A stretch of 61,731 bases of DNA, filler included, from Globobulimina sp. (Eukaryota): assembly GCA_003354225.1 (NCBI GenBank). It is 26 parts of 26 records of this genome, joined end to end, with 100 filler letters (N's around TTAATTAATTAA, not from the genome) between each part and the next. Parts side by side here need not be neighbours in the genome. Positions count along the whole stretch, not along the records: positions 14,280 to 16,558 come from PIVH01007700.1; 25 more parts are not named here. One strand, written 5' to 3'. The stretch's first letter is position 1, and the number at the start of each line of letters is the position of its first letter. This document shows positions 13,112-18,173 of the stretch, in pieces. The position numbers and the translations under genes are program-made. The notes beneath the pieces were generated by a model. That model did not search any database, had not been told where the DNA came from, and worked only from the letters and a program-made list of their open reading frames with translations.

Positions 13112-14134
13112 TCAATCAATATCTTTTTTAACCCACGGTTCTTTATCATCAACATAGGAATAATATGCTCTGCCCTGAGTTGATGATAATATACATTTTA
13201 AAAAGTATTGTTTTTTGGCACCAGGTGGTCTTAAATCATCTCTGATTTGTTTCAAAAACGATAATATGTTTTCTTTTATTTTATGTTCCCCAAATGATGC
13301 TTTACCAATTGGTCCTTGTATGATTCCTTTGCCTTTCCCCGCATCAATCATTCTTATCGATACTTGTCCTTTTTTAGCATTATGTATGGCATTGATTGGA
13401 TCATTTGTTAACGTCCCCAATTTTGCATTGGGCATTAAACCTCTTGGTCCTAACTGGCGGCCATAGGCCACCATCTTACGCAACTGATCAGGCGTTGCTA
13501 TTATTACATCAAATGGATATTGTTTGTGTTCATTTAATATGGAACCATCACCAATGGACAATAATAAATCGTCGCTACCAATCAGATCTGCGCCTGCCGC
13601 CAATGCTTCTTTTTCCATTTCTTTATCTGTTAAGAATACACATATTTTTGTGTCTTTTCCAATGCCGTTTGGTAATATTATATTTCCCCGAATATATTCT
13701 TTTCCTTTGCGCGGATCCAAATTCATTTGACATTCAATAGAGATGGTTTCATCATAATTTATTCGCGATAATCGAATCACTCTTTTCATGCATTCGTCCA
13801 ATGATAAGCTATGTTTCTGATCCACTTCGATCAAATTATCCAATAAGTTGACATTTTTATCTTTCAAACGTGCTAAATGTGCCTCCCATTTCTCTTTATA
13901 TTCCTTTTCTCTTCGACGCCGTTTCGGAATCATTGCGAAATCAAAACATTGATGGTACAGTAGCTTATTATTATTGCTACTCTTTGAATTCCCTAAATAA
14001 GTCAAGTTATAATGTATTGAATGTTTCTGAGTGATTCTGATATTTTGATTACAAAAACTATTGTTTATCACCGATGATTTCGATGTTATTGATTTTATTT
14101 GATGGCATCCTATCTTCATTGTTATTTCATGCAA
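13112..14134 (-). CDS. MRPL1: Mitochondrial ribosomal protein uL1, start probably upstream or uncertain
   Basis: YDETISIECQMNLDPRK, IRGNIILPNGIGK, AGADLIG, LGPRGLMPNAKLGT and ILSSTQG motifs, plus a long N-terminal extension. Confidence 0.9.
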   Translation of the reverse strand: MHEITMKIGCHQIKSITSKSSVINNSFCNQNIRITQKHSIHYNLTYLGNSKSSNNNKLLYHQCFDFAMIPKRRRREKEYKEKWEAHLARLKDKNVNLLDNLIEVDQKHSLSLDECMKRVIRLSRINYDETISIECQMNLDPRKGKEYIRGNIILPNGIGKDTKICVFLTDKEMEKEALAAGADLIGSDDLLLSIGDGSILNEHKQYPFDVIIATPDQLRKMVAYGRQLGPRGLMPNAKLGTLTNDPINAIHNAKKGQVSIRMIDAGKGKGIIQGPIGKASFGEHKIKENILSFLKQIRDDLRPPGAKKQYFLKCILSSTQGRAYYSYVDDKEPWVKKDID

Positions 14135-14611
14135 GAATTAGTATATAAATCTTATCTGTATCGGAATTTCTTGAAAATTNNNNNNNNNNNNNNNNNNNNN
14201 NNNNNNNNNNNNNNNNNNNNNNNTTAATTAATTAANNNNNNNNNNNNNNNNNNNNNNNNNNNNNNNNNNNNNNNNNNNNGAAGCAATTGTTGTTGCTTTC
14301 GAAATAAAAAGATTTGAGTTGTGACACACTCAAAAGACTTTAAAATATTTAAATTAAGAAAAGTTAGGAGTAGTGATATAAGTTCACATTAAATATCGCC
14401 TCTTTTGCAATAGCAAACTTATAAAATAAAATAAGTCTATATGCAGTAAGGGACTCTCTGGCGGCAATACTTAAGGTAGTAACGCTAAAATGGAGAGTAA
14501 TTTTTCTCAGCCAATTGAGTTTTTGTGAAGAAGGCACCATAAATATACCAATAAATCAAACTTAAATATCAAACAAATTAAAATAAAAATAAAATTGAAG
14601 ATACAGAAAAA

Positions 14612-16245
14612 TTGGCATTTGCAGCGTTTAGACAGGCATATGGCACTGCAAAATATAAAAAATCCAAATTAATGTTGAATAGTCAGATTTGGTATATAGA
14701 AATATTGCCATTTATTGAGAAGCATAGTGATGAGAAGCTGTGCATTCTGGCAAAAGCAATGTATCACCAATTGAAGTTTGGATGGCAGATTGGTATAACA
14801 AATAAAAATAATCAGAAATTGAACCAAGAAACGTATGCAGATGATGCTGGTGGAAGAGTGGCAAAATTGGCAATCGCCAAAGATTTAACAAATGACCTAT
14901 GTAGAGGTAAAATCATTGGTTGGATGGCGGAGCCAAATGGATTTGTACCGCTATTTGTAAGACCCAAAGAGATTGATCCTATAACAGGTGAGATATTGCA
15001 ATGGCGTGTAATTAGAGATGGAACCTATGGATCAGAGGAATTTCCATCGTTAAATATGTTAACTGGCGATGATAAGGCAAATATACGCTTATTCCATGCA
15101 CAAAATTTGATTGAATACTGCTATATATTCTATTTATTGTGGGGGAGAGGCTTTTATTTAGCTAAAACAGACTTAGCTATGGCTTTTAGACAGTTGCCTT
15201 TGGCAGTGACTGAACCCAAAAACTGTGCGTATAGATTTGATGGGAAAGTAATGGTCGATTTATATGACTTTTGGGGAACCAGATCAGGTTCAAAACACAC
15301 ACAAGATGTTGGCCAATTGGTGTGTAGATATTTTAATGTTAATGTTAATGGTATACAATTAATAAAAGATATTGATATGATTTCGAATAAAAATAATGTT
15401 GTTTATTTTTATAAACGTTTTATTAATGAATTAAATAATAAAAATATCATTGATTTTGACTACATTTATGATAATAAATTAGTATATAAATGGAATAGAG
15501 CAATGGTGGAGAGATGGTGTAATGAGAATGGATTGATTGGTGTAAAAAATATCATATTAAAACATTGTGATAATGGATGCAAATTAATTGCGGCGAATAC
15601 AGATATTTTATCCTTGAAATTGTCATTTAATGAATTCAAAACATTAAAACAAGAGCAATTTTTCTTGAAATTAGCTATTTTAAAATTAGATTCGAAGCAA
15701 TTATTGAGATTAATATTGAATAATTATATTGATGATTATATATTGTTTTTGCCTCCAATTTTATGCATTGCAGAGGAGATATTTGATAATTTTTGTCAAT
15801 ATTTACATATTTTGGGATTGGATGAATTGCCCAAAAAGAGAGAAGGTCCTTTGACAGTGTTGGAAATAATAGGTTTCATCATTGATTCTTATAATATGAC
15901 CATTGCAATATCGCAGGATAAATTGCATAAAATTAAGCAATTATTATATGGCGCGTTATTGCACGAAGCGATTTTGTTGGAAGAATATGAGTCACTGATT
16001 GGTAAATTGCAGGATGTGGCTAACCTGAAATGGCCAGGAAAGGCTTTTTTGAGGCGTTTGAGAGAGCGCTTGTATGAATGTATTGCATTCTATGGAAGGA
16101 AAAACGTCGTTATTCAGTTATTGCAATGGGAAATGAAGGATCTTTGGTGGTGGAGCAAGTATATTGATGTAGTTGCAGTGGCGTCGATCATTGATTTGGC
16201 GGACACTGTGATGCCAACAGATATCATGCACTTTGATGGTGCTAA
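14612..16245 (+). mobile_element. DIRS/Ngaro-type (tyrosine-recombinase retrotransposon) reverse transcriptase, truncated at the start of RNase H
   Basis: PLFVRPK, WRVIRD, SLN, KTDLAMAFRQLPL, FWGTRS, YIDD (15725-15736), LEIIGFIIDS, SLIGKL...PGKAFLRRL, DLWWW and HFDGA motifs. Confidence 0.85.
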
Positions 16246-16420
16246 AAGTGCTTATGGCCTTATCGTGGCAGGAGCTCAGGTAGGTATCGTATCATTACTA
16301 CTATATTTATAATGATTATAATTTTATTTAGTAGTGGTGGTGGTTACACCTCTCATGTTGGTTATACATATGTGGTGTGCCATGAGTGTGTTATCTGTGC
16401 CCTTGTTTTGAAATAATATA

Positions 16421-16455
16421 TCCAATCCAATCCAATCCAATCCAATCCAATCCAA
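16421..16455. repeat. (TCCAA)7 microsatellite
   Basis: Direct reading of the sequence. Confidence 0.95.
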
Positions 16456-16879
16456 CAATCTTAACCTTGCACCGCCGCCTATTTCTATTTGATGGGTCTA
16501 AGGTGGGGTCAATTCTTGTTCCAACCCTAGCTGCAAAGTACGCTTCTACCTTTGGAGTNNNNNNNNNNNNNNNNNNNNNNNNNNNNNNNNNNNNNNNNNN
16601 NNTTAATTAATTAANNNNNNNNNNNNNNNNNNNNNNNNNNNNNNNNNNNNNNNNNNNNACGAAGGCAAACCTATATTATTTTTACCTTTATCAGTCACCA
16701 GAAACGGTTTGCTTATACCTTACCCCAAATAAAAATCTGACGCTGAAGACAGGATGCTCTTTGGCAACGTTAAATACTTTAGAACATGAATCATTTGAAA
16801 CAGGAATAGTTAAAACTTAAAGACTATCAGGTATCAAATTAAAAATACAAAGCATAAATTGTCAACTTTTGCATGGTCA

Positions 16880-18173
<1,294 letters not shown>

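Follow-up and report, generated by a model that had tools for sequence, protein, structure and literature searches.

Can a reverse transcriptase (RT) carry a domain of another protein family inside its palm, between two catalytic motifs, and keep its active site? The question is raised by a retroelement fragment of Globobulimina sp. (GenBank assembly GCA_003354225.1) on contig PIVH01007700.1, one part of the window, by which we mean the whole 61,731-nucleotide stretch analysed. An earlier note on this DNA had proposed a DIRS-type RT with a SAM-like insertion of ~120 amino acids in the palm. Our analysis leaves us highly confident that the domain is real and that it is a SAM domain. The position and the SAM fold proposed for the insertion both hold, with the qualification that only ~72 of the ~112 residues gained make up the SAM fold, the remainder being a helical hairpin and a variable linker.

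The insertion between motifs B and C

The spacing that set this locus apart is exactly as first reported: 150 codons separate the glycine of the motif B triplet FWG (15269-15277, Gly at 15275) from the YIDD of motif C, which begins at 15725, and the frame indeed stays open through very AT-rich DNA. The peptide quoted from it, WNRAMVERWCNENGLIGVKNIILKHCDNGCKLIAANTDIL, is present in the frame translation. Across the insert DNA (15335-15709; 22% G+C, against 36% on either flank) there is no in-frame stop, whereas the other five frames contain 4-23. Dinucleotide-preserving shuffles of the insert averaged 12.9 stops, and 0 of 20,000 remained open. A G+C content 14 points under that of the flanks is what an intron, or a non-coding insertion left in frame by chance, might show. 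We give that explanation next to no credence, given the shuffles, a confident predicted fold, a proportion of nonsynonymous differences (pN) far under that of synonymous differences (pS), and relatives from other sources that encode the same domain in different sequence. Conserved as protein across a deep clade, the insert is not an intron.

In the AlphaFold2 model of the full protein, built on a 34-sequence alignment (mean predicted local distance difference test score, pLDDT, 90.8; predicted template modelling score, pTM, 0.88), the insertion follows the motif B helix (H234-256) and precedes the motif C hairpin (E378-390), so that "in the palm" is correct by topology. The same alignment columns hold 137 residues in the window protein and 22-26 in insert-less rows, which accounts for the net figure above. 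The insert blocks are modelled at pLDDT 85-97 except for the linker (62 at residues 281-290), which is expanded in relatives P0008, P0029 and P0034. The last SAM helix (360-371) is predicted to end six residues ahead of the strand that enters YIDD, and the high pTM suggests that the orientation of the SAM on the RT core is fixed. One relative, the 217-residue fragment P0048, has a spacing of 113 and is without hairpin and linker while keeping the SAM core, which suggests that the insert is made of two separable parts.

Searched against PDB sequences, the profile of the whole family already retrieved the SAM domains of SARM1 (1.9e-5) and liprin-beta-1 (3e-5). A profile of the 20 inserts alone (A3) gave 44 matches at E<=1, led by liprin-beta-1 (2.1e-9) and SARM1 (2.9e-8) and with 16 sequences at <=2.1e-5; SAM/PNT-containing proteins fill the first 41 places, and PTPN22 the remaining three (E ~0.9). 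Five positions, W304, W312, G332, L367 and K368, are invariant in the 20 inserts. The insert was also modelled by itself (pLDDT 90) and compared by VIA, a wide search independent of Foldseek, with 48,161 chains. Eight chains reached Z>=8 (Z 8.0-9.1, root-mean-square deviation (rmsd) 2.3-3.2 Å over 68-80 residues), with whole SAM chains covered; the superposition on SAM domains at these scores had an rmsd of 2.3-2.7 Å over ~70 residues. SARM1 was best (Z 9.1, rmsd 2.5 Å, 73 residues); Aveugle and Sfmbt both scored 8.9, Sfmbt over 70 of 70 residues. Among the 50 matches listed, 44 are SAM/PNT domains or TEL-SAM fusions, five are mitoribosomal small-subunit chains, and one is a designed lattice with an uninformative title. 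Both a five-helix bundle and a SAM sequence profile were thus found, and the structure prediction that the earlier note had recommended came out SAM-like.

Several results weigh against the assignment. By the tool's own caution, VIA scores of Z 8-9 are common for helical models, and the fold call therefore leans on the uniformly SAM match list and on the sequence profile. Foldseek found nothing in the PDB for the insert model at E<=0.001; its best match stands at 0.84, and 38 of the 39 rows listed are SAM, all at E>=0.84. The window's own insert matches no Pfam SAM model in a single-sequence scan, and across the 20 inserts the Pfam SAM gathering score was not reached, with SAM_1 in three (best 0.0014), SAM_3 in two and SAM_PNT in two. 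In BFVD the insert model drew 26 rows at E<=10, the best of them giant-virus SAM proteins; no reverse-transcribing-virus polymerase occurs among the named rows, four rows being nameless.

The protein around the insertion is a retroviral/long terminal repeat (LTR)-type RT by predicted structure. Foldseek matched the full model to 464 PDB entries at E<=0.001, with RTs of foamy virus, cauliflower mosaic virus (CaMV), murine leukemia virus (MLV), human immunodeficiency virus (HIV) and Ty3 at the top and the foamy virus protease-RT (PR-RT) best (1.6e-8). By VIA-align, an MLV fingers-palm fragment superposes best (Z 19.7, rmsd 2.4 Å, 234 residues), followed by HIV-1 (Z 19.4), Ty3 (Z 18.5) and CaMV (Z 16.9); the model has the fingers-palm-thumb fold of this RT class. 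The catalytic aspartates, which the earlier note took to be intact, are indeed conserved. In an alignment of 13 sequences (A1), D197, A201 and F202 of motif A and G232, G236, S237 and Q241 of motif B are invariant, and Y382, D384 and D385 of motif C are kept in at least 90%. The motif B core of the window protein reads FWGTRSGSKHTQ (also given as FWGTRSGSK).

Sequence families describe this RT less readily. The gathering score of Pfam RVT_1 (PF00078) was not reached: the window protein has no match at E<=1, and one of the 13 family members matches at 0.022. RT_RNaseH (PF17917) matches 10 of the 13, at best with 5.1e-5. The lone Pfam match of the window protein, PAN2_N at 0.04, we took as chance. 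ESM Atlas returned generic RT clusters with taxa too thin for use (one diatom label). Ahead of the fingers lies a confidently modelled helical N-terminal region (residues 1-110, 14582-14910) with conserved GW..G and LNQ motifs, which is common to insert-bearing and insert-less relatives.

Relatives and element type

Of 22 proteins retrieved by a word-indexed search, 12 are close (E 1e-155 to 1e-41); in an exhaustive search the number of representatives falls from 1370 at E<=0.001 to 106 at <=1e-10 and to 27 at <=1e-30. The window protein is 48% identical to relative P0001 across residues 7-556, and the extra residues are common to 19 full-length relatives at 33-47% identity. In alignment A2, the insert region is occupied in 27 of the 34 rows and empty in seven. 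A motif scan put the Gly-to-Tyr spacing at 139-189 in 21 insert-bearing proteins and at 32-39 in nine insert-less ones. The residue before the motif B glycine is W in every insert-bearing protein and Y or F in the insert-less. Insert-bearing elements turn up in metagenomes; among IMG/VR viral contigs, 58 pattern matches included 0 relatives.

Without the insert columns, we computed a maximum-likelihood tree of 29 full-length or near-full-length rows (19 insert-bearing, six insert-less, four outgroup; fragments excluded). The 19 insert-bearing rows form one clade (ultrafast bootstrap, UFboot, 100; Shimodaira-Hasegawa approximate likelihood-ratio test, SH-aLRT, 98) to which the insert-less group is sister (98/91), so that one change is required. 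End branches within the clade are long (median 0.73 changes per site), which makes it old and diverse. The insert-bearing lineage that the earlier note had thought possible is hence recovered as a deep clade, and the insert is not confined to this contig.

Two metagenomic loci, L001 and L002 (73% protein identity), were the sole usable DNA pair. Their pN lies below pS both in the insert (0.262 vs 0.765) and in the rest of the protein (0.152 vs 0.646), which points to purifying selection that acts less strictly on the insert than on the core. Because of saturation at synonymous sites, these values are a pN/pS comparison and not a proper dN/dS. Taken together, alignments, tree and predicted models show an insertion that is evidently translated and folded, was acquired once, and is held by purifying selection in a deep clade.

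The looser constraint leaves room for a tolerated passenger, that is, a host SAM exon captured once and kept because the palm loop accepts it and its removal would misfold the enzyme. The low G+C of the insert and the variable length of the linker, seen in the 139-189 range of spacings, point the same way. We nonetheless consider a passenger improbable. The five invariant insert positions persist in 20 sequences that are just 20-35% identical to the window's insert, the insert is kept in 19 of 19 clade rows despite the long end branches, and fragment P0048 lost the hairpin and kept the SAM.

What kind of element carries this RT? One metagenome scan yielded four loci of relatives, each at most 4.1 kb and without termini. 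In L002, an upstream open reading frame (ORF) with a CCHC knuckle (PF00098, 2.5e-3) is followed by a 709-residue RT/RNase H ORF and the start of a third ORF. In L001 and L003, the RT/RNase H ORF is followed directly by an ORF of 417 and 447 residues, respectively. For this third ORF we found eight relatives; in the nine aligned sequences R204, H346, R349, W372 and Y381 are invariant, a tyrosine-recombinase pattern. Phage_integrase (PF00589) matches seven of the nine at E<=0.01 (best 6.5e-6; L003 at 25.7 bits lies below the cut-off of 27.1), and PHROG integrase families match at 1.5e-3. Searches of the third ORF against the PDB, with a single sequence and two profiles, returned nothing relevant. 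The RT/RNase H ORFs of the relatives end ~160 residues past the DGATNGS motif, and no methyltransferase family was found in the 13 family members at E<=0.1. A fused form of 1009-2880 residues was not found at E<=1e-10, which is weak evidence by the tool's own account. Nor were terminal repeats seen on these short loci, where the repeat scan picked up nothing beyond short tandem repeats ahead of the RT ORF.

These are two ~130-nt copies at L001 1-268, in the spacer upstream of the RT/RNase H ORF, and three 61-nt copies at L002 906-1088, between the gag-like ORF and RT/RNase H. An internal promoter, a packaging signal and a recombination site are all possibilities for them.

Ngaro elements are described as gag - RT/RNase H - tyrosine recombinase without a methyltransferase (PMC8547959, PMC3783388), and DIRS1-type pol as having a Dam-like methyltransferase after RNase H (PMC3783388). 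By those definitions, the order gag - RT/RNase H - putative recombinase without methyltransferase in the relatives corresponds to the DIRS order with a Ngaro-like layout. Judged through its relatives' sequences, the window frame is an RT/RNase H gene fragment of a putative tyrosine-recombinase (YR) retrotransposon of the DIRS order, with Ngaro-like gene order. The DIRS label first attached to it is supported at the level of the order, via the relatives alone; the layout is Ngaro-like and not DIRS1-like, and the window contig itself holds no recombinase.

The window contig and its surroundings

We compared the contig with contigs of four runs (X1-X4) from one sample, which is possibly the assembly's own source and hence not independent. 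Near-identical run contigs cover 15259-16242 (X2 record 14 with 2 differences, X3 records 19 and 22, X4 record 29), so that motif B, insert and YIDD are bridged; X3 record 19 spans 15259-15476 with 0 differences. Upstream of 15259 we found only diverged run copies, ~84% alike. The near-identical contigs of three runs end at 15259, in a fold-back joint (15287 to 15259, with four extra letters) that resembles a graph artefact or a chimera formed by fold-back or amplification. A different copy may be the source of the RT contig's left half; across 15259 the protein stays colinear with its relatives. In run X1, 58 of 80 contigs on the stretch show less than 90% likeness, which means that the sample contains many diverged copies.

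Downstream, the contig is chimeric or misjoined after 16242. Run coverage falls to zero depth over 16256-16558, and behind 16242 the run contigs carry codons for TNGSR.TGW, the start of RNase H, as do all relatives (DGATNGSR..GW). Since run contigs and relatives both continue into RNase H, the last 316 bases of the contig are foreign, and the seeming truncation of RNase H comes from the assembly. Could the insert, too, be an assembly chimera of this contig alone? The misjoin after 16242 and the break of the run contigs at 15259 give the idea its starting point. It is hardly conceivable in view of the two insert ends, which X2 record 14 and X3 record 19 bridge in these non-independent runs, and of the relatives from other sources, which are the independent support.

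The frame and its parts are listed in Table 1. Homology of the relatives to the frame runs over 14600-16252; its first ATG lies at 14672, where relatives P0002 and P0024 begin too. A short A-rich stretch (14554-14616) lies before and at the frame start, and 37-41 bases of it recur in many high-depth run contigs that have nothing else in common with it; a dispersed simple repeat is the probable explanation.

Table 1. Features of the contig that carries the element fragment, in window coordinates
Feature	Position	Strand	Details
Contig with element fragment	14280..16558		2279 bases; neighbouring contigs unrelated
Stop-to-stop frame	14582..16312	+	576 codons; N-terminal helical region, RT fingers/palm with insert, thumb/connection, first RNase H residues
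RT motif A, KTDLAMAF	15164..15187	+	catalytic Asp197 at 15170-15172; strand E192-198 in model
RT motif B, FWGTRSGSKHTQDVGQLVCRYF	15269..15334	+	start of palm helix H234-256
Insert part 1, residues 252-299	15335..15478	+	conserved N-G turn, helical hairpin H258-268/H273-282, variable linker
SAM-fold core, residues 300-371	15479..15694	+	predicted helices 306-315, 319-328, 332-337, 340-346, 349-357, 360-371
Short tether and beta strand into motif C	15695..15736	+	YIDD 15725-15736, Asp384/Asp385; strands E378-382, E385-390
Remaining palm (motifs D, E), thumb/connection, first RNase H residues (HFDGA)	15737..16242	+	
Non-element 3' end	16243..16558		last 316 bases; departs from all relatives; (ATCCA)n run 16420-16456

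The window consists of 26 unrelated contigs of 2276-2280 bases each, in descending order of length and joined by linkers of the form N44-TTAATTAATTAA-N44, so adjacency between contigs carries no meaning. Their G+C content ranges from 28 to 45%. A tblastn search over the window found no second copy of the element, and the neighbouring contigs hold ordinary eukaryote-like genes only. The preceding contig has a ribosomal protein L1 family gene (13115-14137, minus strand; PF00687, 1e-39) with an N-terminal extension of ~125 residues. The next one encodes a zinc-type alcohol dehydrogenase on the minus strand, in two adjoining open frames, 16883-17719 and 17739-18173, which carry ADH_N and ADH_zinc_N; what parts the two frames is a short intron or else a frameshift.

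Possible roles of the domain and comparison with known systems

For domain and mechanism taken as a whole, the best explanation, which we favor with moderate confidence, is a YR-element RT that bears a SAM domain in its palm and uses it as a protein-protein module. Besides the fold scores already discussed, this account has to absorb several adverse points. The window's 2.3-kb contig is without gag, recombinase and terminal repeats, and its 3' end is foreign. The recombinase call in the relatives draws on sub-threshold Pfam and PHROG matches together with motifs. The insert is AT-richer and evolves faster than the remainder of the protein (pN 0.262 vs 0.152), and none of the near-identical run contigs extends across 15259 into the part upstream.

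The module itself would act in RT self-association or in docking to another protein of the element or of the host. A protein-protein role is suggested because the SAM domains nearest in sequence and in fold serve in interaction or polymerisation. LTR-type RTs function as dimers, which we count toward docking or self-association. Because RT and RNase H are encoded in a stand-alone ORF, and not as a Gag-Pol fusion, the RT needs some route into its ribonucleoprotein (RNP), and the SAM would provide a route into the replication complex. We put docking or self-association forward tentatively, as a role that could well turn out otherwise.

A bolder version makes the SAM an oligomerisation switch wired into the catalytic hairpin, gating RT activity. 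Head-to-tail SAM assembly, or docking on Gag or the recombinase, would then concentrate RT on the RNP and allosterically license polymerisation. This reading follows from the last SAM helix feeding into the YIDD strand; we regard it as unlikely. If true, this would be the first RT with its activity under the control of a protein-interaction domain inside the palm.

Some SAM domains bind RNA hairpins, and a domain of the Smaug/Vts1 kind might hold a hairpin of the element's own RNA by the active site and so create a preference for the template in cis. The surrounding enzyme is a polymerase that must choose its template, and the upstream tandem repeats of L001 and L002 could fold. The SAM cores, however, have no conserved basic character, with net charges from -6 to +5 and a mean of -0.1 in 20 sequences. 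Smaug and Vts1 are also missing from the 44 sequence matches and from the 50 structural matches listed. Neither argument is strong, the second being weak. We find RNA binding doubtful and return to the protein-protein module as the preferred role.

In the literature searched, with subscription-only reviews lying outside the search, no paper that we found describes an RT or a YR retroelement with a SAM domain. DIRS/Ngaro-type elements are themselves known; the YR retroelement lineage with a SAM-bearing RT is new. Its diagnostic marks are the W-G of motif B, a distance of ~150 residues from there to YxDD, and a SAM signature. The lineage shows that a domain of >100 residues can be accommodated in this palm loop, which is useful to RT engineering, and it offers a handle on an open question about DIRS/Ngaro elements, namely how an RT outside a Gag-Pol fusion reaches the replication complex.

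Among known systems, the RTs of Ty3, MLV, foamy virus, HIV and CaMV have the catalytic motifs in common with this protein, as well as the fingers-palm-thumb fold. Where the MLV fragment extends over 39-278, the model extends over 27-441, with ~175 extra residues for the same fold, ~112 of them from the insert. With Ngaro elements, the relatives L001-L003 have in common a CCHC gag-like ORF, an RT and RNase H ORF, and a putative recombinase ORF with HxxR and a catalytic Tyr; the family described here differs by its SAM-containing palm insertion and a highly divergent RT. This likeness is one of gene order in relatives, on contigs of at most 4.1 kb; Ngaro elements are defined by split direct repeats, A1-ORFs-B1A2B2. 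DIRS1-like elements have a tyrosine recombinase in place of a DDE integrase, as the relatives putatively do, and share an LTR/retroviral-type RT/RNase H, whereas the relatives found here end their ORF after RNase H, with no methyltransferase.

The SAM domains of SARM1/TIR-1, liprin-beta, Aveugle and Scm/Sfmbt/PHC3 resemble the insert in their ~70-residue five-helix bundle and in the pattern W...W..L....G..L. In those signalling, scaffold and chromatin proteins the SAM is a terminal or tandem module, whereas the SAM of the insert is nested in the catalytic subdomain of an enzyme. RT cores are among the most conserved enzyme scaffolds, and lineage-specific additions within them, such as the insertion in fingers domain (IFD) of telomerase and the extra segments of non-LTR and group II intron RTs, have been informative on recruitment and regulation. 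The insertion described here is likewise a lineage-specific addition within an RT core. The telomerase, non-LTR and group II segments occupy other inter-motif positions, A to B' being one example, and extend the RT fold itself without belonging to a separately recognisable family of domains, whereas here a recognisable, independently folding interaction domain stands between motifs B and C of an RT that is in other respects a canonical retroviral-type enzyme.

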